Below, piece after piece: positions 6,912 through 41,069 of a DNA stretch of 64,000 nucleotides (position 1 is the stretch's first letter; every line of letters starts with the position of its first letter). The notes under the pieces are model-generated. The model saw nothing but the letters and a program-made list of their open reading frames with translations. It was not told the origin of the DNA and did not search any database. Made by a program: the position numbers and the translations under genes. The stretch is from IMG/VR virus record IMGVR_UViG_3300043418_000226; one strand, 5' to 3'. Source of the stretch: a virus. Its lineage: Duplodnaviria; Heunggongvirae; Uroviricota; Caudoviricetes.

Positions 6912-7065
6912 ATCTATACAGTCAAAAACGTAAATAATGTCAGATTTTAAGATTTAAGTTTAAAACATAACGAAAATTATGTGTGATTTTTTTCTAATCT
7001 ATTTTTATTTGTCGACAATTTGTGTTATACTTTCTGAAACAATAAATTTTTTAAACAAAAAAAAC

Positions 7066-9612
7066 ATGAAAAAAACAAGTATTATGACAATTGTGTTAAT
7101 GTTACTATCGGTAGTATCATTTGCACAAATTAAGGGTCGAGTCATCGATCAAACAACTAAAGAAACCTTACCGGGTGTTAACATTATAACAACTAAAGGT
7201 GGGGTTACCACTGGTCTTGATGGTACGTTTACATTAAAAACCTCAAAATCGGGCGATAATTTAAAGGTTTCATATGTTGGATATAAAACAATCGATGTTA
7301 CCGCAAAGAATGACATTCTAATTGAAATGTTACCAACATCAACTGGTTTAAAAGAAGTCGTGGTCATGTCGTCATACGGTATTGATAGAAAGACCCCTGC
7401 AGCGATATCGTCAATTTCTACGAAGTTTGCAATTGAGAATTTAGGTTCACAAGAATTACCTGAATTATTAAAAATAACCCCGTCAGCGTTTATTACAAAA
7501 AGTGGTGGTGGATATGGGGATTCTCGTATTAACATTAGAGGATTTGATAATAAAAATATCGCGGTGTTAATCAATGGAGTACCTGTAAACGACATGGAAA
7601 GTGGTACAGTATACTTTTCAAATTGGGCAGGTATTGGAAATTCATTAAAACAAATGCAAGTTCAGAGAGGTCTTGGAGCATCTAAATTGGCTATCCAATC
7701 AGTTGGGGGTACGATGAATATTATTACTAAAACTACCGACATCGAAAAAGGTGGTTCAATTGAACAATCGACAACAGATTACGGACTCTCTAAAACAGTT
7801 TTATCGTTATCAACTGGTAACACTAAAAAGGGAGCATTAAGTTTTGTTGGTTCAGCAACTCAAGGTAATGGTTATATTGAGGGTACTAACACTAAAGCCT
7901 TTTCATATTTCTTATCATACTCTAAGGATTTCGGCACTAAACATAAAATTCAATTTACCGCAATTGGTGCACCTCAAGAACATGGACAAAGAACAACTCG
8001 TTTGACACCCGCAGAGTATACTCAATATGGTTTAAAATATAATAAAGATATCTACACAGTTAACGGTGAACAACATAACATTGCAACTAACTATTATCAT
8101 AAACCTATTTTTAGTTTAAATCATTATTGGACTATTTCACCTAAAACAACTTTAACCACATCAGCATATGGTTCGATTGGTCATGGTGGTGGTAGTGGTG
8201 CCATCGGTTCATATGCCACGGGTACTTTAAGAGATGCGGACGGACATTTAATTTTAGATAACCAAGTTACTATCAACGCAACATCGACTACCGGTTCAAA
8301 ATATGGTATCCGTAATTCAATTAATAATCACACATGGTACGGAGTATTATCGACATTAAATCATGATTTAACTGAAAATTTAAACTTAACTGTAGGTGTA
8401 GATGCTAGATCATATAAGGGAACTCACTTCCGTGAAATGAGAGATTTAATTGGTGGTTCATACTATAAAGATTTGTTTAACACACACGCAACTGTCGATG
8501 CAAATGCGAGTGATTATATTAACGTAACTAAAATTACACCTGCGGATAATAGAGTGGCTTATGACAATGATGGTTTAGTTAATTACGGAGGAACATTCGG
8601 ACAATTGGAATACTCTAAAGATAAATTATCTGCGTTTATTCAAGGAGCAATTTCTCAAACTCAATATCAAAGAGCTGATAGATACTACACAAATCAAGTA
8701 GAACATTTATCTGAAAAAGTTAACATCACAGGATATAACTACAAAGGAGGATTCAACTATAATATTGACAATAGTAATAACGTTTTTGTTAATGCCGGTC
8801 AATATAGTAGAGCACCTTATTTTTCGTTTATTTTTAATGGAGCGTCACCATCGTCGGCAACTGCGATTAATAGTGGTAATACCGTAAACACTAACATTAA
8901 AAACGAAGAAGCAACGGCATATGAAGTTGGTTATGGTTTTAGAAGTAGAGCGTTCCGTTTTAAGGTAAACGCATATTACACAGATTTTGCCAATCGTTCA
9001 TTAACGTCTCCATTATTAACAAATGCTGATGGTACTCAATACAGAGCATTAATAACCGGACAAGGAGCGTTACATAAAGGTATTGAATTAGAAGCGGCAT
9101 TTAAAGTTACTACTGATTTAGACATCAACGGATTTGCATCTTTTGGTGATTGGAAATGGAAAGGGAACGCTTCGGCAATTATCAGAGACGAAATTAAAAA
9201 TACAGACGTAAAAACATCGATATATTCCGACGGTTTATATGTTGGAGATCAACCTCAAACACAAGTAGGTGCGTACGTTAGATATCAAATTACAAAAGGA
9301 CTAGACGTTTCAGGAACGTATACGTTTAATGATAAATATTACGCATACTACGACCCCACATCTAGAACAACGTCAACTGTTACTGCACAACCATACAAAT
9401 TAGATGCGTTTGGTGTAACGGATGCGCGTGTTGGATATAAATTTAAAATTGGTAAGTATGAGACATATGCACAATATCAGGTTTATAATTTATTTAACGA
9501 AGATTATTGGGTAGAGGCTAACGATGCCGGTGGAACCGCAGTCGGAACATTAGGTTCAGGTTTCAAGGGTTGGGGTAGAAACTCTAACTTTAGTTTGAAG
9601 ATTAATTTCTAA
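7066..9612 (+). CDS. TonB-dependent outer-membrane receptor (CarboxypepD_reg + plug + beta-barrel; SusC/RagA-like)
   Basis: signal peptide MKKTSIMTIVLMLLSVVSFAQ; KGRVID..LPGVNI N-terminal domain; plug-like SSYGIDRKTPAAIS; many predicted beta strands; C-terminal aromatic residue (F); start moved to the ATG at 7066 in the tracked frame. Confidence 0.8.
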   Translation: MKKTSIMTIVLMLLSVVSFAQIKGRVIDQTTKETLPGVNIITTKGGVTTGLDGTFTLKTSKSGDNLKVSYVGYKTIDVTAKNDILIEMLPTSTGLKEVVVMSSYGIDRKTPAAISSISTKFAIENLGSQELPELLKITPSAFITKSGGGYGDSRINIRGFDNKNIAVLINGVPVNDMESGTVYFSNWAGIGNSLKQMQVQRGLGASKLAIQSVGGTMNIITKTTDIEKGGSIEQSTTDYGLSKTVLSLSTGNTKKGALSFVGSATQGNGYIEGTNTKAFSYFLSYSKDFGTKHKIQFTAIGAPQEHGQRTTRLTPAEYTQYGLKYNKDIYTVNGEQHNIATNYYHKPIFSLNHYWTISPKTTLTTSAYGSIGHGGGSGAIGSYATGTLRDADGHLILDNQVTINATSTTGSKYGIRNSINNHTWYGVLSTLNHDLTENLNLTVGVDARSYKGTHFREMRDLIGGSYYKDLFNTHATVDANASDYINVTKITPADNRVAYDNDGLVNYGGTFGQLEYSKDKLSAFIQGAISQTQYQRADRYYTNQVEHLSEKVNITGYNYKGGFNYNIDNSNNVFVNAGQYSRAPYFSFIFNGASPSSATAINSGNTVNTNIKNEEATAYEVGYGFRSRAFRFKVNAYYTDFANRSLTSPLLTNADGTQYRALITGQGALHKGIELEAAFKVTTDLDINGFASFGDWKWKGNASAIIRDEIKNTDVKTSIYSDGLYVGDQPQTQVGAYVRYQITKGLDVSGTYTFNDKYYAYYDPTSRTTSTVTAQPYKLDAFGVTDARVGYKFKIGKYETYAQYQVYNLFNEDYWVEANDAGGTAVGTLGSGFKGWGRNSNFSLKINF

Positions 9613-12584: not shown

Positions 12585-13628
12585 TTACTTTTGAAACCTA
12601 TTCAATGAATTTTCAGATATGAAATTATAATTAACCTTACCGATAAATTCAGGTAGGGTTTTTTTATTGGTATAACTCATTGCCGATTTAAGATAATGGG
12701 TAAAATTCTCAACCCAACCTTCTAATGTGTATTCTACTTGGTGTCTTCTAACAACTCCCTCAGATGTGGTTAATTCTTCTTTTCCCCATGACTTTTGAAC
12801 TTCTTTGGTACTCATACCTCTAAAGTTTTTATACAACGGTATATCGACTTTAAATGATTCTTTAGCTACGTCTGAATATTGGTTGATGATTTCACCGTTT
12901 TCTTTGGTTGTTTGACCAGCACTTTCTAATGCTTTGTTCAAAATTGAACCTAACATAACGTAATCCGCACCCAAAGCTAATGCTTTGATAACATCCGAAT
13001 ATTTTTTAAATCCACCATCGGCAACTATTTTAGTATCAAACCTTCCAACTTTATTACACTCCTCAATTAAAGAACCCATGGGATAACCAATACCGGTATT
13101 TTGTGTTGTTAAACAACCACCACCATTTCCGATTCCGATTCTAACGTAGTCTACATTTATACTACAAAAAAGTTCAAACGTTTCTGGATTGGCAACGTTA
13201 CCTACCATTAAAACTAATCGTTCCCCATAAATTCGTTTTGCCTCTTTCGAGGCATCATATAGTTCACCCATATGTCCATTGGCCACATCAATTAATGCGA
13301 ACATTTGTTCATTTTCAGATATTTTAGGTCTCGATTCAATGAATATTTTTTTAAAATCAATTAAACTATAGGACAGGAATAAATTGGTATCGACGTAATC
13401 ATAATCGGGATTTTTTATCCTTGGTAAGATGGGTGTTATCCCCACCTTATTAAAATGAATAAAGTTATTTTCATTTATAACGGTATCCATTGGTGCGGTC
13501 ATCAACGGTAATTTTTCACCAATATAATAAGGATTAATCTCACTTCTTGAACTGATATTAGTAATTATTTCAGGTTGAATAAGGATATCATCGAAGTCGA
13601 ACAGATTTTTTGGGTTTCTTTTAGTCAT
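12585..13628 (-). CDS. GMP reductase / IMP dehydrogenase family enzyme
   Basis: GIGNGGGCLTTQNTGIGYPMGS resembles the GIGPGSICTT active-site loop; IDVANGH and VGNVANPE barrel motifs. Confidence 0.75.
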   Translation of the reverse strand: MTKRNPKNLFDFDDILIQPEIITNISSRSEINPYYIGEKLPLMTAPMDTVINENNFIHFNKVGITPILPRIKNPDYDYVDTNLFLSYSLIDFKKIFIESRPKISENEQMFALIDVANGHMGELYDASKEAKRIYGERLVLMVGNVANPETFELFCSINVDYVRIGIGNGGGCLTTQNTGIGYPMGSLIEECNKVGRFDTKIVADGGFKKYSDVIKALALGADYVMLGSILNKALESAGQTTKENGEIINQYSDVAKESFKVDIPLYKNFRGMSTKEVQKSWGKEELTTSEGVVRRHQVEYTLEGWVENFTHYLKSAMSYTNKKTLPEFIGKVNYNFISENSLNRFQK

Positions 13629-14390: not shown

Positions 14391-14503
14391 TTTTTAATTT
14401 AATAATATTTTTGGTAAAGATACGATGTTTTTTTAATTAAAAAAATAAATTGTTGAAAATGTCACTAAAAATAACTATATTGTACCATATAATTAATATA
14501 AAA

Positions 14504-15754
14504 ATGGGTAATAAGAAAATTTTCGTACAAATCGCGTCCTATAGAGATCCGCAATTAATTCCAACAATAAAAGATTGTATTAAAAATGCAAAATATCCTG
14601 AGAATTTGGTTTTCTCAATTGCATGGCAACATTCGGAAGAAGATATTTGGGATAATCTTGATGAATTTAAAAACGATGAACGTTTTAGAATTGTGGACAT
14701 TAACTATAAAGACTCTAAAGGGGCATGTTGGGCAAGAAATCAATTACAACAACAATATAAAGACGAAGAATATACACTTCAATTAGATTCCCATCATCGT
14801 TTTATTGAAAATTGGGATGAGGAATGTATTCAAATGTATAGTGGGTTACAAGAAAAGGGACATAAAAAACCACTATTAACGGGTTATATGTCTTCATTTG
14901 ATCCTGAAAATGATCCGGCAGGTAGAACGTTACAACCATGGAAAATGAACTTCGATAGATTCATTCCTGAAGGTGCAATATTCTTCTTACCCGCAACTAT
15001 TGATGACTACCAAAAAAGAACTGAACCAATTCCCGCAAGATTTTATTCGGCACATTTCTGTTTCACATCTGGACAATTTACCGTTGAGGTTCCACATGAC
15101 CCCGAATATTATTTCCATGGGGAAGAGATTTCAATTGCGGTTAGAGCATATACCCATGGTTATGATTTATTTCATCCACATAAAGTAATTGTTTGGCACG
15201 AATATACCAGAAAGGGTAGAAAAAAACAATGGGATGACGACGATAAATGGGTCACTAAGAACGTTGAGTGTCACAAACGTAATAGAAAATTATTTGAAAT
15301 GGATGGTGAAGTGAAAGACATCGACTTTGGTGTTTACGATTTTGGAAACGAAAGGACATTGGAGGATTATGAGAGATATGCAGGGATTTCATTTAAAAAG
15401 AGGGCCGTTCAAAAATATACAATAGATAACAATTTAGCACCAAATCCACCATTGTATGGTGACGAATTAGATGGGTCATTTTTAAAGATTTTCAAACATT
15501 GTATTGACATTGGGTACGATAAAATACCTGAGAATGATTATGAGTTTTTTGTGGTGGCGTTTCACGATGAGAATGACGAAACGTTATATAGACTTGATGC
15601 GGACGTAAATGAGGTGAATAGAATTAAAAATGACCCCGATGGTTACGGTAAAATTTGGAGAGAATTTACCGTGGAAAAAACACCTAAGTATTGGGTTGTT
15701 TGGCCATTTAGTACATCTAAGGGATGGGGAGATAGAATAACAGGTAATTTGTAA
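14504..15754 (+). CDS. glycosyltransferase, GlcNAc-transferase-like (GT-A fold)
   Basis: IFVQIASYRDPQLIPTIKDC N-terminal signature typical of the GlcNAc-transferase family; start moved to the internal MGNKK at 14504. Confidence 0.6.
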   Translation: MGNKKIFVQIASYRDPQLIPTIKDCIKNAKYPENLVFSIAWQHSEEDIWDNLDEFKNDERFRIVDINYKDSKGACWARNQLQQQYKDEEYTLQLDSHHRFIENWDEECIQMYSGLQEKGHKKPLLTGYMSSFDPENDPAGRTLQPWKMNFDRFIPEGAIFFLPATIDDYQKRTEPIPARFYSAHFCFTSGQFTVEVPHDPEYYFHGEEISIAVRAYTHGYDLFHPHKVIVWHEYTRKGRKKQWDDDDKWVTKNVECHKRNRKLFEMDGEVKDIDFGVYDFGNERTLEDYERYAGISFKKRAVQKYTIDNNLAPNPPLYGDELDGSFLKIFKHCIDIGYDKIPENDYEFFVVAFHDENDETLYRLDADVNEVNRIKNDPDGYGKIWREFTVEKTPKYWVVWPFSTSKGWGDRITGNL

Positions 15755-15772
15755 ATAAAGTATATATTATTA

Positions 15773-16540
15773 ATGAAAATATGTTTTGCAACAGAAGTAA
15801 CATATCCAAATTATGTTAATAGAATAAAAACGACTTCATTGGGGTCGTTTTTAAGTAAGGGGTTAGATAAAGCAGGTGTAAGTTATTACATATCAACTAA
15901 CCTACCAAATAATTTAAGTGAGTATAAGGATAACGATTCAATTAAGGTTTTTGATATTGAGGATTTAAGAAAAGACAAACCGATGTCAATCAAACACGAA
16001 TTATTACCTGAAGACCCGACTGGAATTTATCCATCGAAGTATCCGTGGAATTTAAGGAGATTTATTATTGAGAAGGCAGCAATGGACGGATTCGACTTTA
16101 TAATTTACGTAGATGCAGATAATACAATTAATTTAAATGTTAATCTTGAGGACATATTAACCTCATTTAAGTCTAATTACGAACCAAATACCGTACAAAC
16201 CAATTCGGCCGTTTTTAAGTACAGTAACGGAACTCCTCATGATGTTTTTCAATATCACGATGAATATAAAAAACTTTTTAATTTTAAATTTGATGTTGAT
16301 GACTATGACACGTTGGATGGACCTGTTCAAGTATTCATAGGTGAAACTAATGAGTCAATTTTAAAGTTTACTTCTAATTGGCATAAGTTTGCCGAATTTG
16401 GATACGAGAAAGAATTTGGATTTGGTTACGATAACAATAAACATGGTAATTTATCATTTGTGATACCTTTATCGGGGTTTAAATTAAAATGGAGGTCATA
16501 CCCATTTTTCCAAGACCATAGACCTGAAGATAGATATTAA
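15773..16540 (+). CDS. hypothetical protein in glycosylation cluster
   Basis: 255-aa ORF co-oriented and tightly spaced with the glycosyltransferase and methyltransferase genes. Confidence 0.55.
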   Translation: MKICFATEVTYPNYVNRIKTTSLGSFLSKGLDKAGVSYYISTNLPNNLSEYKDNDSIKVFDIEDLRKDKPMSIKHELLPEDPTGIYPSKYPWNLRRFIIEKAAMDGFDFIIYVDADNTINLNVNLEDILTSFKSNYEPNTVQTNSAVFKYSNGTPHDVFQYHDEYKKLFNFKFDVDDYDTLDGPVQVFIGETNESILKFTSNWHKFAEFGYEKEFGFGYDNNKHGNLSFVIPLSGFKLKWRSYPFFQDHRPEDRY

Positions 16541-16542
16541 TT

Positions 16543-17100
16543 ATGGAAAATAATATTGAACATTACTTTATAAAACATCTAACGGATAAGTTTGAAAGTA
16601 AGTATCATGAAGTTTACAATACCGTACTAGGACCGATAAGAAATGATGAAATAACATTGTTAGAAATTGGATTAGGAACGATAACTCATGGGCCTTCAAA
16701 TATGATTAGTTGGAAAGAACAATATATCGATTATAAACCAGGAGCATCATTAAGAGCATTTAAAGACTATTTTCAAAAAGGATTAATTTATGGTATGGAC
16801 ATTCAACATGATTGTATGTTTAATGAAGATAGGATTGACACCTTTCTATGTGATTCGAGAGAAAAAAAACAATGTGACGATAAGTTAAACGAAATGAAAT
16901 TTGACGTTATAATCGACGATGGTGATCACTCATCTGAAGGTCAGATAAAAACGTTTCTAAATTTATTTGGGAGAGTTAAAAGTGGTGGTTATTATTTTAT
17001 TGAAGATGTGGCATTTTTAGAGGACATTAAGTCATATTTTGAATCCACAACATACGATTATGAATTCCATAACAGATTATTAGTAATAAAAAAAATATAA
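16543..17100 (+). CDS. class I SAM-dependent methyltransferase
   Basis: motif I LLEIGLGT and DVIIDDGDH. Confidence 0.65.
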   Translation: MENNIEHYFIKHLTDKFESKYHEVYNTVLGPIRNDEITLLEIGLGTITHGPSNMISWKEQYIDYKPGASLRAFKDYFQKGLIYGMDIQHDCMFNEDRIDTFLCDSREKKQCDDKLNEMKFDVIIDDGDHSSEGQIKTFLNLFGRVKSGGYYFIEDVAFLEDIKSYFESTTYDYEFHNRLLVIKKI

Positions 17101-17750
17101 TGATATCATTAAAAAAAATACTACGCCACATAAATGATAAGGAGGGATTTACCTTTGTTTCGGTAGGTGCAAATGATGGAATATTTGTTGACGAGGTTTT
17201 CCAATCTAATTTATTAAATGTTAATTGGAAATGTTTTTTTATTGAACCAGTCAAAGAAACATTTGATAGATTGATAAAAAATTACGATGAACATTACCCG
17301 AATAATTGTTTTGTTTTTGAGAACTATGCGATACATACTGAAGACGGAGAAGGTTATTTAGTTACTAATAAAATTGATGATTCAAGGGGAATGTGTTCAT
17401 TTTTTAGAGAAGAAAGTGCTGAAACTGAAAAATTCAAAGTCACAAAAAAAACATTTAAAAGTTTTGTTTTAAAAAATAATATCGATAAAATTGATTTCTT
17501 AAAAATTGATTGTGAAGGTATGGATAATGAAATAATATTACAATGTTTTGAATGTGGAATAATGCCGGATTTAATTTTATTTGAGGATATTTCATTAGAC
17601 ATTAGTGAATCGAAAATTAGGGACATACATTATTTAATTAAAGAATTAAATAAAAGAGACGATTACGTGTTAATGGAGGACATTCCTGAATATCAATACG
17701 AAGAATCGAATAAATTAATCATTAAAAAAGAACTCTTAAAATATGTTTAG
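17100..17750 (+). CDS. FkbM-family methyltransferase
   Basis: FVSVGANDGIF matches the FkbM VGANxG signature; ends in TAG, overlapping the next start (ATGTTTAG). Confidence 0.7.
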   Translation: MISLKKILRHINDKEGFTFVSVGANDGIFVDEVFQSNLLNVNWKCFFIEPVKETFDRLIKNYDEHYPNNCFVFENYAIHTEDGEGYLVTNKIDDSRGMCSFFREESAETEKFKVTKKTFKSFVLKNNIDKIDFLKIDCEGMDNEIILQCFECGIMPDLILFEDISLDISESKIRDIHYLIKELNKRDDYVLMEDIPEYQYEESNKLIIKKELLKYV

Positions 17751-19260
17751 TATACTTGGTAATGTTTTTGCCGACAAGGGATTTTATATAAATCTACCGT
17801 CATCTACGGATAGGAAAGAAAATATTGAGAAGTTAATTAGTCAATTTAATATCGAAGGCTTAAGTAGGTTCGATGCGTTAACTGACGAAATGATTCAATA
17901 TTCATGCACCAAAAGTCATTTAGGTATTTTTGAAGAATCGTCTAAGAATGGTTTAGAAGTTATTTTTGTGGCCGAAGATGATATCGATATAAATGAAATA
18001 TGTTACGCACCATATAGTAAAGAAGACATAACGTTTAAAGATGTAATATCAAAAATTCACGAAGATTTAAAAAACGTGGAGTGGGACGTGTTATTATTTG
18101 GTTGTAATCCAAAAACTCATTTAATACCTGTAACAGATAACTTAGCAATTAATCATCAAAGTACAGGTGCGTGGGGTTATATTATTAAAAAAAGAGCGTA
18201 CGAATATATTCTACAAAATTTAAACTATAAAAAAGATTTAATTGCAATTGATGATTTTTTACCGTTATTAAATAGTAAAGGATTTGTTACGTTATGTACG
18301 ATACCGTTAGTTATAAATCATGCGATAGGGTTCGAATCTACATTACAACCTAGAGGTCCGGTTAACTACGATGCTTGGATTATTGGGAATTACCATAAAT
18401 TTCTTTATGACCATTATCAGGATAATTTTACCGAAAGGAGAGTTGAGAAAGAAGTTACGGTTGTAATTGCCGGTCATTTCGTTGAAAACTACATGTTTCA
18501 TTTAAATTACTTACTTCATAGTTTACCTCACGATTTGAAAAAATGTAAATTTTTAATTCATTACGATGAAAACCCTGAGTTTGACACAAACACTGAGAAA
18601 TTTAAACTAAATGCATATTTTAGAGATGTTAGAAGTGATTTGAACGTTACCATATCATATGGATTCGGTGGGTTAATTTCAACCATCGAAACAACAATGA
18701 ACGAGGTTAAAACTCCATACTTTATATTTTTAGAACATGATTGGGTTTTTTTAGAAAAGGATAATATCAAATTTATAAATTTGATTGAGGCATTTAACAA
18801 TCATAATTTTATAAATGCGGTGTGGTTCGCTAAGGACGATAATACGATGAGAGGGTTTGAAATTGCTCGTGACATCGATGACGTAACTACCCCTTTTGAA
18901 AGGGAAATAAGGGTAAATGAAGTGGATTTAGTGACAACTTGTAGATGGTCAAATAATCCGGTAATGTTTAGGTTAACAAAAATGAAAGAGTGGTTCTATG
19001 AAATCATCAAAAATGAACATGTTGGAAAAACACATCAAGGTCAATTTAATGTTGAGGAGACAATAATACCTTATTACAGAACAGAAATAAGTGAAAATAA
19101 ATGGGAATCCATTAGAGATAATTGGGGGACCTTTCTATATGGTGATTTAAATGAGGGACCCTATGTCGGTCACACTGATGCATCAAGAAGATATCAAGGT
19201 ATTGCGAAATCAATGCCAGAAATAAATGGAGAAAATTACATCAAAAACAATCCAATATAA
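17743..19260 (+). CDS. multidomain glycosyltransferase (GT25-like N-terminus)
   Basis: N-terminal YINLPSSTDRKENIEKL resembles the GT25 LPS-glycosyltransferase start; 505 aa. Confidence 0.6.
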   Translation: MFSILGNVFADKGFYINLPSSTDRKENIEKLISQFNIEGLSRFDALTDEMIQYSCTKSHLGIFEESSKNGLEVIFVAEDDIDINEICYAPYSKEDITFKDVISKIHEDLKNVEWDVLLFGCNPKTHLIPVTDNLAINHQSTGAWGYIIKKRAYEYILQNLNYKKDLIAIDDFLPLLNSKGFVTLCTIPLVINHAIGFESTLQPRGPVNYDAWIIGNYHKFLYDHYQDNFTERRVEKEVTVVIAGHFVENYMFHLNYLLHSLPHDLKKCKFLIHYDENPEFDTNTEKFKLNAYFRDVRSDLNVTISYGFGGLISTIETTMNEVKTPYFIFLEHDWVFLEKDNIKFINLIEAFNNHNFINAVWFAKDDNTMRGFEIARDIDDVTTPFEREIRVNEVDLVTTCRWSNNPVMFRLTKMKEWFYEIIKNEHVGKTHQGQFNVEETIIPYYRTEISENKWESIRDNWGTFLYGDLNEGPYVGHTDASRRYQGIAKSMPEINGENYIKNNPI

Positions 19261-19261
19261 A

Positions 19262-21613
19262 ATGAAAAAATTATTAAATAACATATTAACCTTCGATAAT
19301 AAAAAAATAGATCCATCAATTATTAATAATGACCAAGTTAAAAATTTGGTTTACTATCTTTTAAATGTTATTGAAAATAAAATAGACGGTGATGTTGTGG
19401 AATTCGGATGTTACGTGGGTGAGTCAAGCAAATACCTAACTAAGACATTATTGGAGACTGAAAGCACAAAAAAACTTTACGTATACGATTCGTTCGAAGG
19501 TTTACCCCCACTTTCTAAATGGGAAGAAAACACAGGTTGGAAAGCGGGAACCTTGAAAAGTACTGAGGAGATATTGATTTCCAATTTTACCAATAACAAT
19601 TTACCATCACCAATTATACATAAAGATTGGTTCAAAGATGTACCGGAAGATAAGATACCAGAAAAAATATCATTTGCGTTTTTGGATGGAGATTTTTACG
19701 ATTCAATTTATGATAGTTTGATGAAAGTTTTTGACAAAGTAACCGATGGTGGGTATATATGTTTCCACGATTATCAGAGAGACGATTTACCGGGTGTCAG
19801 GGCAGCAATTGAAGATGTGTTTAAAGAAAAGAATGTAGAATATACCGTTGAGGAAGTTTGTGGTCAATTAGGTGTTTATCGAAAAAACATGTTACTTGAA
19901 AATAAGTTACCTCAAAGACCTAAAGTTGAGAGAAAGTACGGAGGTACAACGATTGTAACGGGTATATGGGATATCAAAAGACATGAGTTAAGTGTTGGGT
20001 GGAATAGAAGTTTTAATCACTATTTGGACCACTTATCTAAGTTAATGAGGGTAGATGATAATATGATTATTTTCATCGAAGAAAAATATAGAAGTTTTGT
20101 TGAGGAACGTAGGAGTGACGATAACACTCTAATCGTTGTAAGGGAATTGGATTGGTTTAAACAAAATAGTGGAATGTTCGATAAAATTCAAAATATTCGT
20201 AACAATCCTGAATGGTTTAATCAATCAGGGTGGTTGGTCGATAGTACACAAGCAAAATTAGAATTGTATAATCCTATTGTTATGTCAAAAGTATTTTTAC
20301 TTAATGACGCGTCAATTATGGATCCGTTTAATTCTTCACATTTAGTTTGGGTCGATGGGGCAATTACTAATACCGTACATGAAGGTTATTTTTGGCACGA
20401 TAAGGTAATTCAAAACATTGAAAAATATTTCAATAAGTTTAGTTTTGTGTGTTTCCCATACGACGGTAAAGTCGAAATCCATGGATTTAGATATGAGGAT
20501 ATTTGTCACTATTCTGAAGGTGAAGTTAATAAAGTTGCTAGAGGTGGAATATTCGGTGGACCGAAACATCTTTTTAGTAAAATAAACGAAATTTATTATG
20601 AACTATTAAACACTACATTATCGAACGGTTTAATGGGTACAGAAGAGAGTATTTTTACTATTATGACATACAAATACCCTGAACTAATTCAATATTTTGA
20701 GATTGAGGGTACGGGATTATTAGGTACGTTCTTTGAGAACTTAAAGAATAACACACTCCAACCTAAACAAGAGAAATCTGAAACAGTAAGAGTAAATCCA
20801 CATAATAGAGATAACGTTGCACTTTATGTTTTAACTTACAATTCACCGAAACAATTTGAAAAACTTTGTATGTCATTTGAGATATACGATAAAAATTTCT
20901 TAGATAAGCCATTAAAATTTTTAATTAACAATTCATTAGATAAGGGTACCGATAATGAATACGGTAACTTATGTGAAAAATATGGATTTACTCAAATTAA
21001 AAAAGATAATATAGGTATATGTGGAGGTAGACAATTCGTTGCGGAACATTCAGAAGAAAATGGGTTCGATTATCATTTCTTTTTTGAAGACGATATGTTT
21101 TTTTACTTGGGAGAAGAACAATTCTGTAAATCAGGTTTTATGAGAAAAATACCTAACTTTTATAATAAAATGTTAGATATTGCTTGGATTGAAAATTTTG
21201 ATTTTCTTAAATGGAATTATAGTGAATTTTTTGGTACCAATTCAAAACAATGGGTTTGGCATAACGTACCGGCAGATGTTAGGGCCCGTTTATTTCCCGA
21301 TAAACCCGTTAAAATCACTAGTGACCATAATTACGCACCTAATATGAATTTTAAAAATATAAAAACGTTAAATGGGTTACCATATGCAACGGGTGAAATC
21401 TATTACTGTAATTGGCCTCAAGTTGTTTCTAAAGAAGGTAATAAAAAAATGTTTTTAGATGTTAAATGGAACCATCCATACGAACAAACATGGATGTCGT
21501 ATATTTTCCAAGAAACTTTAAAAGGAAATATAATACCGGGGTTATTATTGGCATCACCAACCGAACATAATCGTTTCGATTATTATCCTGGTCACGAAAG
21601 AAGAGAAAATTAA
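19262..21613 (+). CDS. fusion of TylF/MycF-like O-methyltransferase and glycosyltransferase-like domains
   Basis: GDVVEFGCYVGESSKYL, LYVYDSFEGLP and FLDGDFYDSIY resemble macrocin-O-methyltransferase; about 500 aa of further domains; start moved to MKKLLNN at 19262. Confidence 0.65.
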   Translation: MKKLLNNILTFDNKKIDPSIINNDQVKNLVYYLLNVIENKIDGDVVEFGCYVGESSKYLTKTLLETESTKKLYVYDSFEGLPPLSKWEENTGWKAGTLKSTEEILISNFTNNNLPSPIIHKDWFKDVPEDKIPEKISFAFLDGDFYDSIYDSLMKVFDKVTDGGYICFHDYQRDDLPGVRAAIEDVFKEKNVEYTVEEVCGQLGVYRKNMLLENKLPQRPKVERKYGGTTIVTGIWDIKRHELSVGWNRSFNHYLDHLSKLMRVDDNMIIFIEEKYRSFVEERRSDDNTLIVVRELDWFKQNSGMFDKIQNIRNNPEWFNQSGWLVDSTQAKLELYNPIVMSKVFLLNDASIMDPFNSSHLVWVDGAITNTVHEGYFWHDKVIQNIEKYFNKFSFVCFPYDGKVEIHGFRYEDICHYSEGEVNKVARGGIFGGPKHLFSKINEIYYELLNTTLSNGLMGTEESIFTIMTYKYPELIQYFEIEGTGLLGTFFENLKNNTLQPKQEKSETVRVNPHNRDNVALYVLTYNSPKQFEKLCMSFEIYDKNFLDKPLKFLINNSLDKGTDNEYGNLCEKYGFTQIKKDNIGICGGRQFVAEHSEENGFDYHFFFEDDMFFYLGEEQFCKSGFMRKIPNFYNKMLDIAWIENFDFLKWNYSEFFGTNSKQWVWHNVPADVRARLFPDKPVKITSDHNYAPNMNFKNIKTLNGLPYATGEIYYCNWPQVVSKEGNKKMFLDVKWNHPYEQTWMSYIFQETLKGNIIPGLLLASPTEHNRFDYYPGHERREN

Positions 21614-21629: not shown

Positions 21630-21660
21630 AAAAACCTCCCAAATTAGGAGGTTTTTTTAT
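21630..21660 (+). terminator. intrinsic terminator
   Basis: CCTCCC-AAATTA-GGAGGT hairpin plus T7. Confidence 0.6.
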
Positions 21661-27270: not shown

Positions 27271-27679
27271 TGGTGGAGATGGAGGGATTCGAACCCTCGT
27301 GTTGTTCGCAACACCATAAATGGACTACACGTTTATTCAATTAATTCACAACTGACAAATATTTGGTTCCTATTTTTACATCGTTACCAATAACTGTGTC
27401 GGGTTCACTTGTGTTGGAGTAGACCCCTGAACGAGACTCCTAATACATCTTCGGGTGGTATTACACCTTGAGAACTTCTGTTGCTAGGTTATATGTTCAT
27501 CGACCCCATGTAGGTTCGTCTTAGACTACTGCTACGTTAGAAGTTGCAAGTAAACCTGCAATTTCCATGTTGTTGTAAACGTTGCCGTTTGAAATTTACC
27601 ATCGTGTATTAAAGTCATAGATGATGTTTGACTACGTGCCCACTTACAATATAAACGCCAGTCAATTCCAGTCATCCCC
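27271..27679 (-). ncRNA. ssrA: tmRNA (transfer-messenger RNA)
   Basis: 5' GGGGAUGACUGGAAUUGACUGG and 3' GGUUCGAAUCCCUCCAUCUCCACCA tRNA-like ends with a G3:U70 wobble and encoded CCA; about 409 nt; sits between a minus-strand promoter (27696-27703) and a terminator; candidate tag frame GNVYNNMEIAGLLATSNVAVV-TAA. Confidence 0.8.
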
Positions 27680-28033: not shown

Positions 28034-28714
28034 TTAAATGGACAATGGTAACTGTTTGTCATAGAGTGCCTCAAAGAAAAGTTTGTTCTTTTCCCACTTC
28101 TTATTTGTTGCACCAACTGACTTATGTGTTAAATTAATCTTGGTAGTTAATCCAATTTTTACCCCCTCTAAAAAGTTCTCAACACAGAATGAAATATCAT
28201 AAAAGTGAAACCCATTAAATTCTTCGTTGAATTCTTTCTTTATACGTCCTTTATGAACCATGAAGAATAATCCATCCACTATTACCACATCTTTAAGAAC
28301 ATCGTTGTAAACACTCTTAGAATAATGATTAACGTGTCTTTTACCTTCGTGTATGTGTCCAACAACTCCAAACATATTTTCTCGACTTGTCCACCAACAA
28401 CCACTGGTTAATTTATCGGTACCCGCAATTCCAATGATACCGTAATCGGGATGTTTATCAAATAACTTAACGATTTTAGGTGTTATATTTGACGTTTCTA
28501 AAATCAAATCATCATGCATGAACACAACAATGTCATTTTGTGATTCTTTTAATCCTTTATTGTAGATTTGTGTAAGTGATTCCAATCCGTCATTTTCATA
28601 AATTAGAATTTGAGTTTTTGGGTGTGAAAACATCTTACTTACGTGTTTTAAATAATCATCACAAATTGTTCGTGTTGATATAACCACAGTTACCGGTGTG
28701 TTAGTCTTGGACAT
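28034..28714 (-). CDS. glycosyltransferase family 2-like
   Basis: VTVVISTRT and DIVVFMHDDL GT-A motifs. Confidence 0.6.
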   Translation of the reverse strand: MSKTNTPVTVVISTRTICDDYLKHVSKMFSHPKTQILIYENDGLESLTQIYNKGLKESQNDIVVFMHDDLILETSNITPKIVKLFDKHPDYGIIGIAGTDKLTSGCWWTSRENMFGVVGHIHEGKRHVNHYSKSVYNDVLKDVVIVDGLFFMVHKGRIKKEFNEEFNGFHFYDISFCVENFLEGVKIGLTTKINLTHKSVGATNKKWEKNKLFFEALYDKQLPLSI

Positions 28715-36882: not shown

Positions 36883-37413
36883 TCACCATTTCTTATTTTT
36901 AATAAAATTATTTCTATATTCATCTATCGCACCGATTACTTCATTTTCATATCTTGAATGAACATATTGGTGGTGTGTTGGGCATAACGGTATTAAATTT
37001 TTTGGCTCGTTATTATTATGATTTTTATCATAATGATGAACGGTAACTATTTTATTTTCACCGCAAATGACACATTCTTTGTTATGATAGTTGAAACAAG
37101 TGCTTCTATAACTGTCATCTTTCCAATTGGGATTTGCCGTCCCACTTCTAAAATAAGTGTTAGAACAAGAATATGAACAAGTTGTTTTTTCTTCTTTATT
37201 ACCTACTTTTGTTTCAAATTGATTACCACAAATAGGACATTTTTTTAATACTTTCTCATATTTTGATGGTTTTGATTTAAGATGGTCAATGTTTATTTTA
37301 TTTTCAATTACGAAGTTTTTAAATTTTAATTGGGTTCTACCATTATAATACCCGTATATTTTTTTAATTGCTTCTGACTTTGTTTTTGATGTTTTTATTA
37401 TTTCTCTTTCCAT
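36883..37413 (-). CDS. HNH homing endonuclease
   Basis: Cys-rich zinc-finger region and HHYDKNHNNNEPKNLIPLCPTHHQYVH HNH motif. Confidence 0.75.
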   Translation of the reverse strand: MEREIIKTSKTKSEAIKKIYGYYNGRTQLKFKNFVIENKINIDHLKSKPSKYEKVLKKCPICGNQFETKVGNKEEKTTCSYSCSNTYFRSGTANPNWKDDSYRSTCFNYHNKECVICGENKIVTVHHYDKNHNNNEPKNLIPLCPTHHQYVHSRYENEVIGAIDEYRNNFIKNKKW

Positions 37414-37476
37414 AATAATAAATACATTAAAATGTCGTAAAAGTAAAGTTTGACCAAAACTTTTATTTACGATTTG

Positions 37477-37548
37477 TCAGGGTAGTAAGAGTTGAACTTA
37501 CCGCTTCCTGCGTCCAAGGCAGGCTTCTCACCCCGAGAATATACCCTG
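37477..37548 (-). tRNA. tRNA-Pro(TGG): tRNA-Pro (UGG)
   Basis: acceptor CAGGGTA/TACCCTG, stem CCTGC/GCAGG, loop CT-TGG-AC. Confidence 0.8.
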
Positions 37549-37556
37549 TTTTTATG

Positions 37557-37630
37557 TGATCCCATCAGGAGTCGAACCTGAAACCTACACATTAGAAGTG
37601 TGTTGCTCTATCCAATTGAGCTATGGAACC
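37557..37630 (-). tRNA. tRNA-Arg(TCT): tRNA-Arg (UCU)
   Basis: D-arm GCTCAATTGGATAGAGC, loop CT-TCT-AA. Confidence 0.8.
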
Positions 37631-37676
37631 AAATACACTTCCTCTTATACGCGAGTATAGTGTGAACTAAGCTTCG

Positions 37677-37761
37677 TACCGGAGGTGGGACTCGAACCCA
37701 CACGAGGATTTCTCCCCAACAGAGTTTAAGCCTGTCATGTCTACCATTCCATCACCCCGGC
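37677..37761 (-). tRNA. tRNA-Leu(TAA): tRNA-Leu (UAA)
   Basis: acceptor GCCGGGG/CTCCGGT, loop CT-TAA-AC, long variable arm. Confidence 0.8.
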
Positions 37762-37821
37762 GATTATTTCCACAATATCAAAGAACTACGATACAAATGT
37801 AATGCAAAAATTCTAATAAAA

Positions 37822-37860
37822 CAAAAAACCCGAACATTTTTTAATTTGTTCGGGTTTGTA
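37822..37860. terminator. bidirectional terminator hairpin
   Basis: AAAAAA-CCCGAACA..TGTTCGGG-TTT. Confidence 0.5.
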
Positions 37861-38046
37861 TAATGATTTAATTAAATTTTAAGTCATAGTATCCGAACAC
37901 AAATTACTAGGTTGCACACCTCTTCCGTTCCCATTATATAACGGGTTTAAACTAAGTGATATGTTATTTATATTCTTCATCTTCCTAATAAGTATATAGA
38001 AATATACAAAAGTTTTATTTAAAAACAAAATATATTTCAATTTTTT

Positions 38047-38253
38047 TTAATATTTTCCTAATCTAAAGTAAGGAATGTACGTTTTTCCTCTCCTTGTTTT
38101 TTGTTTAAGGCTTGGATATTTTTGAAAATAGTATTTCTTTGGTTGATTTTGGTGAATCCACAATCTTCGTTCGTATATTGTTAATATTGTCGGCACCACC
38201 AAACAACTACTCATTAACACCATAACAATTAATAATGCAATTAATTTTTTCAT
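38047..38253 (-). CDS. small putative membrane or lipoprotein
   Basis: 68-aa ORF with hydrophobic N-terminus and SSC motif. Confidence 0.35.
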   Translation of the reverse strand: MKKLIALLIVMVLMSSCLVVPTILTIYERRLWIHQNQPKKYYFQKYPSLKQKTRRGKTYIPYFRLGKY

Positions 38254-38268
38254 TTTACAAAACGTTAG

Positions 38269-38340
38269 TAGCCCTGCCGGGAGTCGAACCCGACTTTCCA
38301 GGATGAAAACCTGGCGACCTAACCGATAGTCGACAGGGCC
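38269..38340 (-). tRNA. tRNA-Glu(TTC): tRNA-Glu (UUC)
   Basis: acceptor GGCCCTG/CAGGGCT, stem CCAGG/CCTGG, loop TT-TTC-AT. Confidence 0.75.
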
Positions 38341-38906: not shown

Positions 38907-38991
38907 GGAGGATGTAGGATTCGAACCTACGGTACCTTGCAGTACAACAGTTTTCAAGACTGCCGCGATCGACCACTCTGCCAATCCTCCA
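38907..38991 (-). tRNA. tRNA-Ser(TGA): tRNA-Ser (UGA)
   Basis: acceptor GGAGGAT/ATCCTCC, loop CT-TGA-AA, long variable arm. Confidence 0.8.
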
Positions 38992-40607: not shown

Positions 40608-41069
40608 TTATTTACCCAACGAATCTTTATTTGAAATCGTTATTGGATTTAAACCAACAAAGTCTTTGATAATTTTTCTAACTTCGTTATTACTTGTCCA
40701 AACAATACTGTGTTCAGATTCGGGATTATATTCACCTTCAACCATATAAACCACTATAGTATTTGGTTCTAAAGTTAGGAATCCATGTGCTTTATCATTT
40801 TTAATTAACACTGCATTAGAATCGTCAATAACTTCAAATTCAGTTTCTCCGGTTTCAATATTGACAGCAAAATCGACAATCTTACCCTGAACGACTTTAA
40901 TGTATTTTGTTTGTGGTGGGTTCGTTTGATAATGTAACCCCCTAAAGGTGTATTCTTTATCATTAATACTAACTGAACATTGATCCCACTTCATACCTAA
41001 TTCGGTCGTTGATAATGGGGTGTACGACCCTCGGCTATCCTTAAACGTTTTATGTTCTATTTTTTCCAT
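40608..41069 (-). CDS. dTDP-4-dehydrorhamnose 3,5-epimerase (RmlC)-like cupin
   Basis: FRGLHYQTNPPQTKYIKVVQGKIVDFAVNI and NDKAHGFLTLEPNTIVVY align with the RmlC signature. Confidence 0.7.
   Translation of the reverse strand: MEKIEHKTFKDSRGSYTPLSTTELGMKWDQCSVSINDKEYTFRGLHYQTNPPQTKYIKVVQGKIVDFAVNIETGETEFEVIDDSNAVLIKNDKAHGFLTLEPNTIVVYMVEGEYNPESEHSIVWTSNNEVRKIIKDFVGLNPITISNKDSLGK

Follow-up and report, generated by a model that had tools for sequence, protein, structure and literature searches.

A jumbo-phage operon of glycosyltransferases and sugar O-methyltransferases with a conserved bracket and a variable cassette

Soluble viral enzymes that make a methylated glycan on a capsid have been described for PBCV-1, where A064R, which combines two glycosyltransferase domains with a methyltransferase domain, and A061L assemble the rhamnose cap found on the capsid glycan and di-O-methylate it (PMC9614988); we consider this pair a functional analogue of the locus described here. 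Glycoproteins have also been detected on jumbo-phage virions, as gel staining of XacN1 virions revealed at least two periodic acid-Schiff-positive protein bands (PMC5852040). Other acceptors have been put forward elsewhere. For glycosyltransferase (GT) clusters in cyanomyoviruses, the authors favor modification of the host surface (PMC12801897), and genes of the HtrL_YibB family, one domain of which is found in our locus, are otherwise known from lipopolysaccharide or lipooligosaccharide (LOS) outer-core loci (PMC4172580). Phage GT-A enzymes that make multisugar glycans on DNA are known as well, and the genes of such pathways usually lie in clusters (bioRxiv 10.1101/2023.12.21.572611).

The locus lies on a 318,764-bp (318.8-kb) metagenomic contig from a jumbo phage, of which we analyzed a stretch of 64,000 nucleotides (here, the window). 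The phage origin assumed at the outset is correct, as the window carries TerL, at least 27 tRNAs, a transfer-messenger RNA (tmRNA), and a GOLLD RNA on a contig of this length. An earlier note, made from the letters alone, had described six co-directional genes (g1 to g6), and all six are present in a tight operon (14504 to 21613, plus strand) (Table 1). Neighboring genes overlap or are separated by no more than 18 nt, and the six form one transcription-unit-like block. A G+C-containing terminator-like hairpin begins 17 nt past the g6 stop. The promoter-like site is weaker evidence: such sites were not enriched over shuffled sequences, the region is AT rich, and promoters of the Bacteroidota type fall outside the model used in the scan. 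The neighbors of the operon in the window are nonstructural (e.g., an IMPDH-like gene and small open reading frames [ORFs]), with no recognizable structural genes adjacent. The operon encodes five confident GT-A-type domains (one in g1 and two each in g5 and g6), with g2 as a possible sixth, and three sugar O-methyltransferase domains (MycE-like in g3, FkbM in g4, and TylF-like at the N terminus of g6). Transmembrane-like segments were found in none of the six proteins.

Table 1. Positions of the operon domains, candidate control signals, and distal genes in the window
Feature	Position	Strand	Evidence or remark
Promoter-like site TTGAAA-17-TATATT	14453..14481	+	23 nt upstream of g1 start; weak evidence
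g1, GT60-like (PF11397) GT-A glycosyltransferase, 416 aa, conserved 5' bracket	14504..15754	+	Pfam E 8.5e-73
g2, 255-aa protein, family unassigned	15773..16540	+	Possible divergent GT-A glycosyltransferase
g3, MycE/TylE-type class I SAM-dependent sugar O-methyltransferase core, 185 aa	16543..17100	+	Profile match
g4, FkbM-family methyltransferase, 216 aa	17100..17750	+	PF05050 E 1.2e-10; TIGR01444
g5 N-terminal domain, GT25-like GT-A glycosyltransferase	17743..18342	+	PF01755 29.5 bits (cut-off 24)
g5 C-terminal domain, second GT-A-like domain	18445..19260	+	AlphaFold2 model; invariant E331-H332-D333
g6 N-terminal domain, TylF/MycF/SpnH-type sugar O-methyltransferase	19262..19879	+	PF05711 E 1.2e-24
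g6 middle domain, HtrL_YibB-like, GT-A-like nucleotide-sugar transferase fold, conserved 3' bracket	19946..20695	+	PF09612 E 3.6e-17
g6 C-terminal domain, GT-A glycosyltransferase, conserved 3' bracket	20813..21613	+	Invariant R602, E621-D622-D623
Bidirectional intrinsic-terminator-like hairpin closing the operon	21630..21656		10- to 12-pair stem; T-run on both strands
GT2-like glycosyltransferase, overlaps a metallophosphoesterase gene	28034..28714	-	PF13712 E 3.6e-29
RmlC-like NDP-4-keto-6-deoxyhexose epimerase (cupin), 153 aa, within tRNA array	40608..41069	-	PF00908 E 7.5e-24

All GT and methyltransferase (MT) assignments made earlier were borne out by domain, profile, or structure matches. 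The call of g1 as a GlcNAc-transferase-like GT is backed by a match to the PF11397 "GlcNAc" glycosyltransferase family that far exceeds the cut-off (246 versus 21 bits), and its DxH motif (D95-S96-H97) is invariant across 10 diverse homologs. Characterized members of GT60/PF11397 are polypeptide GlcNAc-transferases, which place the first GlcNAc onto a protein hydroxyl, and we propose that g1 is the initiating transferase of the glycan.

At the other end of the operon, g6 had been described as a 795-aa TylF-like O-methyltransferase with GT-like domains. This order stands (TylF, HtrL_YibB, and then a C-terminal GT-A domain), but while the listed ORF spans 19226 to 21613 (+), the likeliest start codon is the second ATG, at 19262 and a single base past the g5 stop; this start gives 783 aa, as found for a 96%-identical homolog (P0001). 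The N-terminal domain matches NovP, SpnH, and MycF in the PDB (E 1e-11), with SpnH also found by Foldseek (E 2.8e-12; TM scores up to 0.83). The middle domain has many invariant columns, and its family, PF09612, was matched by all 31 g6 homologs searched; an AlphaFold2 model searched with Foldseek gave matches to proteins with two GT domains. Structural matches of the C-terminal domain include GnT-I, POMGNT1, TarP, and RmlT.

The multidomain, GT25-like description of g5 (17743 to 19260, +) likewise holds, with PF01755 above its cut-off and two GT-A domains in the AlphaFold2 model (pLDDT, 90.4; pTM, 0.88). The N-terminal domain has an invariant E78-D79-D80 and resembles COLGALT1 (9evj), Mimivirus R655 (9crz), and beta-1,4-galactosyltransferase (Foldseek E 1e-9 to 1e-7), and the whole chain resembles the two-GT-domain enzymes LH3, LARGE1, and K4CP. 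For g3, which has no Pfam match, a three-sequence profile hit the sugar 2''-O-methyltransferases MycE (3ssm; E 1.8e-22) and TylE (8ia9; E 9e-21), so the earlier class I SAM methyltransferase call was right; its motifs are LEIGLG and IIDDGDH. The FkbM assignment of g4 is supported by Pfam and by TIGR01444 (67.7 bits; cut-off, 37.7), although no solved relative was found. The remaining protein, g2, had been left as unknown and has no family match in Pfam or NCBIfam and no PDB match. Its R96 and D116 (within DADN) are invariant, which suggests that it is possibly a divergent GT-A glycosyltransferase; hhalign aligned this DxD-like motif to that of GT25 with a probability of just 12%. Homologs of g2 are rare, forming 32 representative clusters among 1.84 billion proteins.

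The two distal genes reported earlier, a GT2 and an RmlC-like cupin, are real. The GT2 is syntenic in close relatives (66 to 84% identity), whatever their cassette type, and is at most a putative member of the operon's pathway. The RmlC-like protein matches RmlC (E 1.8e-14), ChmJ, EvaD, and NovW in the PDB but scores under the equivalog cut-off of TIGR01221 (66.7 versus 155.75 bits); it is a possible supplier of donor sugar to the operon. The solved relatives nearest to the g6 N-terminal domain (SpnH, NovP, MycF, and CalS11) and to g3 (MycE and TylE) act on 6-deoxyhexoses. Homology thus supports the earlier idea that the genes serve to make methylated deoxy-sugar glycans, through the relatives of two of the three MT domains and the RmlC-type epimerase; the sugar may be a 6-deoxyhexose, and the distal genes are candidate members of the pathway.

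The most interesting feature of the locus, which the earlier note missed, is its architecture. In all phage relatives examined (46 loci), g1 (50 to 83% identity) and the g6 core (the HtrL-like and GT-A domains, residues 240 to 795; 46 to 78% identity) form a conserved functional pair that brackets the locus, and the genes between them behave as a swappable cassette. The interval ranges from 1.6 to 9.3 kb and is mosaic: we counted 31 architectures in it, and its genes fall into more than 50 families, including carbamoyltransferase, GT10-like, PLOD-GT, GT34+MT, RXYLT1+GT2, DegT aminotransferase, and GT17. Domains are also joined in different ways. Of the 46 loci, 19 have the TylF-like domain joined to the g6 core and 27 lack this domain; an FkbM domain takes its place in locus L032 and in a Jiulongibacter chromosome. 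A g3-type MT is fused to a g5 homolog in P0177, P0241 joins g2 with MT and GT25 domains, and g2, g3, and g5 are combined in a 1,076-aa protein of L021. The same bracket occurs in the cultured jumbo phages XacN1, Xoo-sp13, CM1, and RAS14 (g1 identity, 47 to 50%), and the phages that share the locus infect hosts as far apart as Xanthomonadaceae and, probably, Bacteroidota.

The architecture is shared with bacteria, where the pair is encoded by adjacent genes or as one fused polypeptide (969 aa in Myxococcaceae; 1,184 and 1,484 aa in Vicinamibacterales). The Gemmatimonadaceae pair adjoins Bac_transf (a polyprenyl-phosphate sugar transferase), GT4, and NTP_transf_5 genes, and the Jiulongibacter pair adjoins genes for UDP-glucose dehydrogenase, an epimerase, and a carbamoyltransferase; another homolog has a RiPP-modifying MbnB/TglH gene nearby, encoded on the other strand. 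The polysaccharide-type neighbors suggest that some members of the family, at least, use a polysaccharide or a lipid-linked acceptor.

The best reading of the operon, at somewhat short of an even chance, is that its enzymes O-glycosylate virion proteins in the cytoplasm and that the glycan is variable and O-methylated. We favor it because of the polypeptide transferases of GT60, the soluble toolkit, and the glycoprotein stain of XacN1, and the virion-protein acceptor itself is our inference. In XacN1, the homologous locus (ORF334 to ORF330) lies beside baseplate and giant virion genes; the XacN1 evidence, however, is a gel stain at the level of protein bands rather than glycopeptides, and the XacN1 bracket genes are just 42 to 50% identical to those of our phage, with a different cassette. 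The earlier note had left three roles open, of which the stain supports the one on virions, the host surface stays open, and DNA is disfavored by the cutting of XacN1 DNA.

The main rival, which we consider rather unlikely, is remodeling of host-surface glycans: soluble transferases at the inner membrane face would use host undecaprenyl-linked intermediates (for O-antigen, exopolysaccharide, capsule, or the general O-glycan of Bacteroidota) and so alter the cell surface or a secreted polymer in infected cells. Such a change could block superinfection or stop progeny from sticking to debris. It stays in contention because some bacterial homologs adjoin polysaccharide genes. The LOS outer-core loci with HtrL_YibB genes, the name of GT25 as a lipopolysaccharide family, and the view taken of the cyanomyovirus clusters point the same way, as does the occurrence of O-methylated sugars in Bacteroidota O-glycans. 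Against it, the 288 cassette proteins include no flippase, polymerase, ligase, initiating phosphoglycosyltransferase, or membrane protein, and effectively no transmembrane-like segments. Classical phage seroconversion systems are membrane embedded and belong to temperate phages, whereas our phage shows no sign of lysogeny. Dependence on the lipid-linked intermediate of one host is hard to reconcile with the host range of the locus, and in XacN1, the glycoproteins are on the virions themselves.

Nonvirion targets, namely, host cytoplasmic proteins (taken over or inactivated, as by toxin glycosyltransferases), a soluble small molecule, or a free oligosaccharide, seem improbable. The toolkit is wholly cytoplasmic, the operon sits among nonstructural genes, a bacterial homolog lies near the MbnB/TglH gene, and the MT domains of g3 and g6 have solved relatives that act on glycosylated small molecules (such as macrolides, spinosyn, and novobiocin). 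However, a multistep glycan with an interchangeable cassette typifies exposed, recognized surfaces rather than single-sugar inactivation, aglycone biosynthesis genes accompany none of the 46 phage loci, and the XacN1 glycoproteins point elsewhere.

DNA hypermodification, in which phage pyrimidines, hydroxymethylated or hydroxylated, would carry a methylated oligosaccharide as protection from restriction, much as in multi-GT cytosine glycan pathways, is highly unlikely, given that the contexts examined lack a TET-like or hydroxymethylase gene, XacN1 DNA is cut normally (it was mapped by BssHII, NaeI, and SpeI digests), and the TET-associated glycosyltransferase (TAGT) match of the g6 C-terminal domain is below threshold (18.3 versus 27.5 bits; E 0.0023). 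Specifically, no 5mYOX/TET, C5-methyltransferase, or dNMP hydroxymethylase was found in the window, where Pfam results cover most ORFs of at least 100 aa, or in the flanks of two relatives, likewise annotated with Pfam, although gene inspection covered 64 kb of the 319-kb genome. TAGT matches at E values of ≤0.01 do occur in 13 of 31 g6 homologs (best E, 1.9e-5), the locus lies within ∼6 kb of a DNA polymerase gene in L004 and XacN1, and the R...EDD motifs of the domain agree with those described for DNA-acting GT-A enzymes, but the available text of that source does not mention sugar O-methyltransferases (bioRxiv 10.1101/2023.12.21.572611). The same bracket module also occurs among polysaccharide genes in bacterial chromosomes.

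If virion proteins are indeed the acceptors, the operon would be a soluble cytoplasmic glycan assembly line of a jumbo phage. In the cytoplasm, g1 would start the glycan on phage structural proteins and the g6 core would then extend it, with the cassette enzymes g2 and g5 adding further sugars. At least one of these may be a 6-deoxyhexose, its donor coming from host dTDP-sugar enzymes, perhaps together with the phage RmlC-like epimerase. Methylation by g3, g4, and the g6 N-terminal domain would cap hydroxyls, leaving the virion with a partly hydrophobic glycan coat that differs from strain to strain. Exchange of cassettes would diversify this coat, and such diversification may change adsorption, stability, or recognition.

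The operon holds up under domain analysis much as the earlier note had read it: six co-directional genes (g1 to g6, in order) that include a GlcNAc-transferase-like glycosyltransferase (GT; g1), a class I SAM methyltransferase (MT; g3), an FkbM MT (g4), a GT25-like multidomain protein (g5), and a TylF-like MT fused to GT-like domains (g6), with a GT2 gene and an RmlC-like gene elsewhere in the window. The six ORFs fill the operon with gaps of at most 18 nt or with overlaps, and a terminator-like hairpin lies 3′ of the last stop codon. In a promoter scan, promoter-like site counts were under the shuffle expectation. The start of g6 is probably the ATG at 19262 rather than 19226.

The product of g1 matches PF11397 ("GlcNAc"; CAZy GT60) with an E value of 8.5e-73 (246.3 bits against a cut-off of 21), covering profile positions 95 to 351 of 352. 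Its D95-S96-H97 sequence, a DxH motif that we take to be the GT-A metal-binding motif relevant to GT27/GT60, is invariant in 10 homologs at 44 to 75% identity, including that of the cultured jumbo phage XacN1. In g5, the N-terminal domain scores 29.5 bits against PF01755 (cut-off, 24) in a partial match (positions 69 to 198 of 199), and the AlphaFold2 model (pLDDT, 90.4; pTM, 0.88) shows a second GT-A domain. Foldseek matched the N-terminal domain to COLGALT1, Mimivirus R655, and a bacterial beta-1,4-galactosyltransferase, and the whole chain to the two-GT-domain enzymes LH3, LARGE1, and the chondroitin polymerase K4CP. The DxD-type motifs E78-D79-D80 and E331-H332-D333 are invariant among g5 homologs. 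A tblastn search with g5 found no match among 50,697 phage records, and the g1, g4, and g5 sequences found none in the PDB.

The g6 model (pLDDT, 83.8) has three domains: a TylF MT, an HtrL_YibB-like domain, and a C-terminal GT-A domain. Residues 27 to 218 score 87.5 bits against PF05711 (cut-off, 23); phmmer matches this domain to NovP, SpnH, and MycF at an E value of 1e-11, and its best structural matches are SpnH (Foldseek E value, 2.8e-12; target TM, 0.79 to 0.83), NovP, MycF, and CalS11. The motifs VEFGCYVGES and LDGDFY, conserved to 90% or more across 29 homologs that carry the MT, would by analogy with these enzymes be the SAM and metal sites. Residues 241 to 490 match PF09612 (HtrL_YibB; 63.3 bits against 24.1), as do all 31 homologs of 31. 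As g6 scores far below the YibB equivalog cut-offs (TIGR02192, 65.6 bits against 264.9; NF008462, 34.8 against 342), this middle domain is a relative of Escherichia coli YibB at the domain level only. In the C-terminal domain, E621-D622-D623 is invariant among homologs, and a resemblance to TAGT is subthreshold (18.3 bits against 27.5; 13 of 31 homologs at an E value of ≤0.01, the best 1.9e-5).

Gene g2 belongs to no family in Pfam or NCBIfam. Searched one by one against Pfam, its family members gave single subthreshold matches to GT6, GT2, and GT8 only; profiles of 7 and 16 sequences matched nothing significantly in the PDB, and hhalign comparisons with the g5 and g6 families reached a probability of at most 12%. 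That g2 is a further GT-A glycosyltransferase is only a guess.

For g3, Pfam returned no match; its profile matches MycE (3ssm; E value, 1.8e-22) and TylE (8ia9; E value, 9e-21). The alignment spans residues 199 to 326 of the 419 in MycE, and the 185-aa g3 protein does not have the ∼160-aa N-terminal auxiliary (tetramerization) domain of MycE. Thus, g3 is a core-only relative of MycE/TylE rather than a full member of the family. The FkbM assignment of g4 rests on TIGR01444 (67.7 bits against 37.7) and PF05050 (42.2 against 22.7), and no solved relative of g4 was found. Of the distal genes, one encodes a GT2-like protein (PF13712) and the other a 153-aa RmlC-superfamily epimerase (PF00908, 84.8 bits against 27) that falls short of the TIGR01221 equivalog (66.7 bits; cut-off, 155.75); its PDB matches comprise RmlC and the mono-epimerases ChmJ, EvaD, and NovW.

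With five or six GT domains in the operon, its predicted product is an oligosaccharide. The nearest solved relatives of g3 and of the g6 N-terminal domain methylate 6-deoxyhexoses, either on an aglycone or on TDP: SpnH is the spinosyn rhamnosyl 4′-O-methyltransferase, and CalS11 is the TDP-rhamnose 3′-O-methyltransferase. The operon thus carries one MycE/TylE-type and one MycF/TylF-type MT together. In macrolide pathways, such a pair yields a 2,3-di-O-methyl-6-deoxyhexose, with TylE then TylF (or MycE then MycF) converting 6-deoxyallose to mycinose in two methylation steps, a succession that the two MTs here echo. Considering these relatives, the pairing, and the RmlC/ChmJ-type epimerase in the window, it is reasonable to predict that the glycan would end in a terminal O-methylated 6-deoxyhexose. 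Identity to the solved MTs is only about 18 to 28%, so the identity of the sugar, the regiospecificity, and the methylated positions do not transfer from them. Unlike the macrolide and spinosyn systems, the operon has no aglycone pathway. Since the window showed no RmlA, RmlB, or RmlD, synthesis of the donor would depend on the host.

Homologs of g6 number more than 3,900, all metagenomic and on contigs of up to 324 kb. The comparison took in 58 IMG/VR loci along with other contigs. Of these loci, 46 have both g1 and the core of g6 (residues ∼240 to 795, the HtrL-like and GT-A domains), always arranged alike in order and orientation, with identities of 50 to 83% for g1 and 46 to 78% for the g6 core. 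Between these bracketing genes lie 1.6 to 9.3 kb where the 46 loci differ: genes from more than 50 families occur there, in 31 different orders. Even close relatives that keep the same small flanking genes (u109 and u117 upstream; u107 and u122 downstream) differ in this cassette. Cassettes of relatives carry a NodU/CmcH-type carbamoyltransferase, a GT10 fucosyltransferase-like protein, a PLOD-type GT, a split DegT aminotransferase, an RXYLT1-like protein plus a GT2, a GT34 plus an MT, a GT17, or a Galactosyl_T protein (a faint precomputed match). The TylF domain is itself variable, being fused to g6 in 19 loci and missing in 27; in one locus (L032) and one bacterial homolog, it is replaced by an FkbM domain. 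Three loci (L033 to L035) begin with two tandem g1 copies. None of the six window proteins has a transmembrane-like segment, and among 288 cassette proteins there were four marginal transmembrane matches, one of them an ORF-start artifact and none convincing.

The same bracket occurs in four cultured jumbo phages of Xanthomonadaceae (XacN1, Xoo-sp13, CM1, and RAS14), with g1 at 47 to 50% identity, the g6 core at 42%, and ∼4 kb between them. In XacN1, the counterpart of g1 is ORF334 (49% identity), and that of g6 residues 239 to 795 is ORF330 (42%). This is a true homolog of the bracket, but the cassette consists of a carbamoyltransferase and two unknown ORFs in place of g2 to g5, and ORF330 has no fused MT where g6 has its TylF-type domain. 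The XacN1 locus adjoins a baseplate wedge gene and a gene for a 3313-aa protein. At the DNA level, similarity to cultured phages is confined to a 0.5-kb stretch of g1. The authors of the XacN1 study called GTs only for ORF334 and the unrelated ORF328, leaving ORF330 hypothetical; they found at least two Schiff-positive glycoprotein bands on gels of purified virions and mapped the genome with BssHII, NaeI, and SpeI digests (PMC5852040).

Fusions recur within the module. Genes g2, g3, and g5 form one 1076-aa protein in locus L021, and two further homologous proteins join a g3-like MT to g5 (P0177) or combine g2, an MT, and GT25 (P0241). Some bacteria encode g1 and the g6 core as a single polypeptide: a Myxococcaceae genome has one of 969 aa, and two Vicinamibacterales genomes have versions of 1184 and 1484 aa. 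The two genes adjoin each other in Gemmatimonadota, in Lewinellaceae, and in the isolate Jiulongibacter sediminis. Thus, g1 and the g6 core together make up a functional unit of three GT domains, one that predates, or moves between, phages and bacteria. The J. sediminis JN14-9 chromosome carries a full module, comprising a UDP-glucose dehydrogenase, an epimerase, a short GT60-like gene, g1, a carbamoyltransferase, and an FkbM-HtrL-GT-A protein, followed by an HNH nuclease and a DUF2357/PD-(D/E)XK restriction-like gene. This bacterium offers a culturable system for the pair.

Which molecule receives the glycan is best answered, with some reserve, by O-glycosylation of virion proteins. The characterized members of GT60 are polypeptide GlcNAc-transferases, every protein encoded by the operon is soluble, the locus has no lipid-carrier or export functions, and the module is common to phages of unrelated hosts. 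XacN1 virions, moreover, stain as glycoproteins, a gel result to which ORF330 to ORF334 are not genetically tied. Proteins of the tail-fibre-like block of the window may be virion surface components and hence candidate acceptors.

The main rival, remodeling of host surface glycans, is less favored and on balance unlikely. It draws on the Gemmatimonadaceae pair, which sits beside Bac_transf and GT4 genes, on the J. sediminis pair, which sits beside the UDP-glucose dehydrogenase and epimerase, and on HtrL genes, whose other known setting is LOS loci (PMC4172580). Because bacterial homologs occupy such polysaccharide-type contexts, the acceptor type may vary within GT60/PF11397. Taken together, the bacterial contexts of the pair are heterogeneous, as they also include NTP_transf_5, restriction genes, and, on the opposite strand, a RiPP enzyme, and they single out no acceptor. 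The operon shares with O-antigen, capsule, and LOS outer-core loci the conserved flanks, the mosaic of GT and sugar-modifying genes, and the many architectures, and the GT25 and HtrL_YibB families also occur in LOS loci. Unlike those loci, it has no Wzx, Wzy, ligase, initiating phosphoglycosyltransferase, or membrane protein. Phage serotype conversion by GtrABC likewise needs a membrane flippase, a bactoprenol GT, and an integral-membrane GT, whereas the phage locus lacks membrane proteins.

Transfer to some other cytoplasmic acceptor is improbable. DNA hypermodification is very improbable: phage DNA-glycan clusters (5mYOX or ThyS associated) also use several GT-A enzymes in series and find a weak echo in the TAGT-like C-terminal domain of g6, but that resemblance is below threshold, homologs lie in bacterial polysaccharide contexts, XacN1 DNA is restrictable, and neither the window genes for which there are Pfam results nor the flanking regions of two relatives include a TET/5mYOX, C5-MT, or hydroxymethylase, although DNA-glycan pathways are normally clustered (bioRxiv 10.1101/2023.12.21.572611).

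Virion-protein glycosylation has an instructive parallel in PBCV-1, where A064R (GT, GT, and MT) and A061L build and 2,3-di-O-methylate the terminal rhamnose of the capsid glycan in the cytoplasm and gene variants alter the antigenic type (PMC9614988). Both systems have soluble viral multidomain proteins with two GT domains plus a sugar O-MT and a separate second MT, and the O-methylated 6-deoxyhexose predicted here parallels the 2,3-di-O-methyl-rhamnose cap. The likeness is one of analogy rather than homology, as A064R was absent from the top 50 viral fold matches. The domain order is also permuted (MT-GT-GT here, GT-GT-MT in A064R), the PBCV-1 glycans are N-linked whereas a GT60-like O-glycosylating initiator is proposed here, and PBCV-1 has an algal rather than a bacterial host and no cassette architecture. 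Mycobacteriophage glycosylation systems belong to small temperate siphoviruses of Actinobacteria, and we know of no bracket-and-cassette organization among them. According to the summary in PMC12619734, phage-encoded GT operons of the Che8, Corndog, and Myrna type glycosylate subunits of the capsid and the tail tube, and an HtrL/YibB-like protein has been annotated near GTs in F1-cluster mycobacteriophages (PMC10453261).

The operon belongs to a jumbo phage, as the earlier note had assumed: the 795-aa g6 protein matches residue for residue a protein on the 318,764-bp JGI metagenome contig Ga0485287_000013, where it has the same neighbors, and the window holds TerL, tRNAs, a tmRNA, and a GOLLD RNA. 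Our reading covered 64 kb of this 319-kb genome and the 10-kb flanks of relatives. The window is ∼32% G+C. Its TerL has an identity of no more than 29% to any cultured-phage counterpart, and XacN1 is absent among the best 15 records listed. A SusC-like receptor gene is an unusual auxiliary gene for a phage; together with related low-GC contigs that bin with MAGs of Saprospiraceae, Cytophagaceae, and Bacteroidia, it hints at a Bacteroidota host. The "moraphages" that infect Bacteroidota have four core GT orthogroups (PMC12619734), and on host and GT content membership of this lineage among them is plausible. The window also encodes its own trans-translation pair, a ClpB-type chaperone, and a possible RNA-repair set of ligase, cREC_REC, and AAA_33 genes. 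Among 57 long ORFs, 50 end in TAA, 4 in TGA, and 3, including g4, in TAG; a g4-g5 fusion through TAG readthrough by the amber-suppressor-like tRNA was ruled out, since g5 lies in a different frame.

Features of the window and of related loci
Feature	Sequence	Coordinates	Strand	Remark
SusC-like TonB-dependent outer-membrane receptor	window	6979-9612	+	CarboxypepD_reg, Plug, and beta-barrel domains
IMPDH/GMP-reductase-like gene	window	12585-13628	-	just upstream of operon; beside g1 also in L009, L024, L066
Operon, g1 to g6	window	14504-21613	+	six ORFs
Terminator-like hairpin	window	21630-21656		
tmRNA	window	27271-27679	-	tag ATSNVAVV*
tRNA array	window	29579-41824	-	27-29 tRNA genes, most amino acids; small ORFs and RmlC-like gene interspersed
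tRNA-Met	window	29579-29664	-	directly adjoins GOLLD RNA
GOLLD RNA	window	29671-30059	-	full-length; Rfam RF02032, 273 bits (gathering score, 150); at tRNA-array edge
tRNA, anticodon CTA	window	30846-30919	-	amber-suppressor-like; ARAGORN label Pyl
SPFH/Band-7 protein	window	31029-32954	-	641 aa
SmpB-like protein	window	33798-34229	-	
RmlC-superfamily epimerase	window	40608-41069		
Tail-fibre-like block	window	42170-51352	+	includes Collar-domain ORF
PA14-domain protein	window	44372-46276	+	in tail-fibre-like block
cREC_REC-domain protein	window	52060-52533	-	
Rnl1-type RNA ligase	window	52526-53566	-	
AAA_33 kinase-like protein	window	53815-54240	-	set spans 52060-54240
ClpB-type chaperone	window	54890-56902	-	double AAA+
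TerL (large terminase subunit)	window	61725-63497		
Tandem g1 copies	L033-L035	4071-6579		419 and 418 aa
Full module, J. sediminis JN14-9 chromosome	L080	2943-16771		
GT60-like + HtrL-like fusion, Myxococcaceae/Vicinamibacterales	L128	7995-10904		
GT60-like + HtrL-like fusion, Myxococcaceae/Vicinamibacterales	L100	7351-11805		extends to further GT domains
GT60-like + HtrL-like fusion, Myxococcaceae/Vicinamibacterales	L101	7992-11546		extends to further GT domains

To our knowledge, virus-encoded virion glycosylation is well documented only for chloroviruses, giant viruses, and, recently, a few mycobacteriophages. Earlier reports of phage GT clusters, for example in XacN1, in the moraphages, and in cyanomyoviruses, which carry up to 13 GTs (PMC12801897), left them unresolved. 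In the literature searched, we found no description of the bracket-plus-cassette architecture, of the ORF330 family as a two-GT-domain partner of a GT60-like gene, or of the bacterial g1/g6-core fusions and the recurrent MT-GT fusions. A broader proposal, possible but doubtful at present, is that the g1/g6-core bracket with its swappable middle constitutes a widespread, unrecognized "glycan serotype" locus of jumbo phages, a viral counterpart of O-antigen loci. Each strain would then build its own methylated or carbamoylated virion-protein coat. The locus would be exchanged by recombination at the bracket genes, and its source would be a cytoplasmic protein-glycosylation module that needs no lipid carrier and that would also operate, as a fused three-GT enzyme, across many bacterial phyla.

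The acceptor can be tested in the four cultured carriers, XacN1, Xoo-sp13, CM1, and RAS14. The pairing also places two families that are poorly understood in a working context, with bacterial and phage GT60-like and HtrL/YibB proteins appearing as obligate partners, often fused. For glycoengineering, the cassettes offer compact MT-GT fusion enzymes. If an abundant jumbo lineage does carry variable O-methylated coats, phage surfaces would be under O-antigen-like diversifying selection, and this would bear on adsorption and host range, on particle stability and grazing, and on how the immune system recognizes phages used in therapy.
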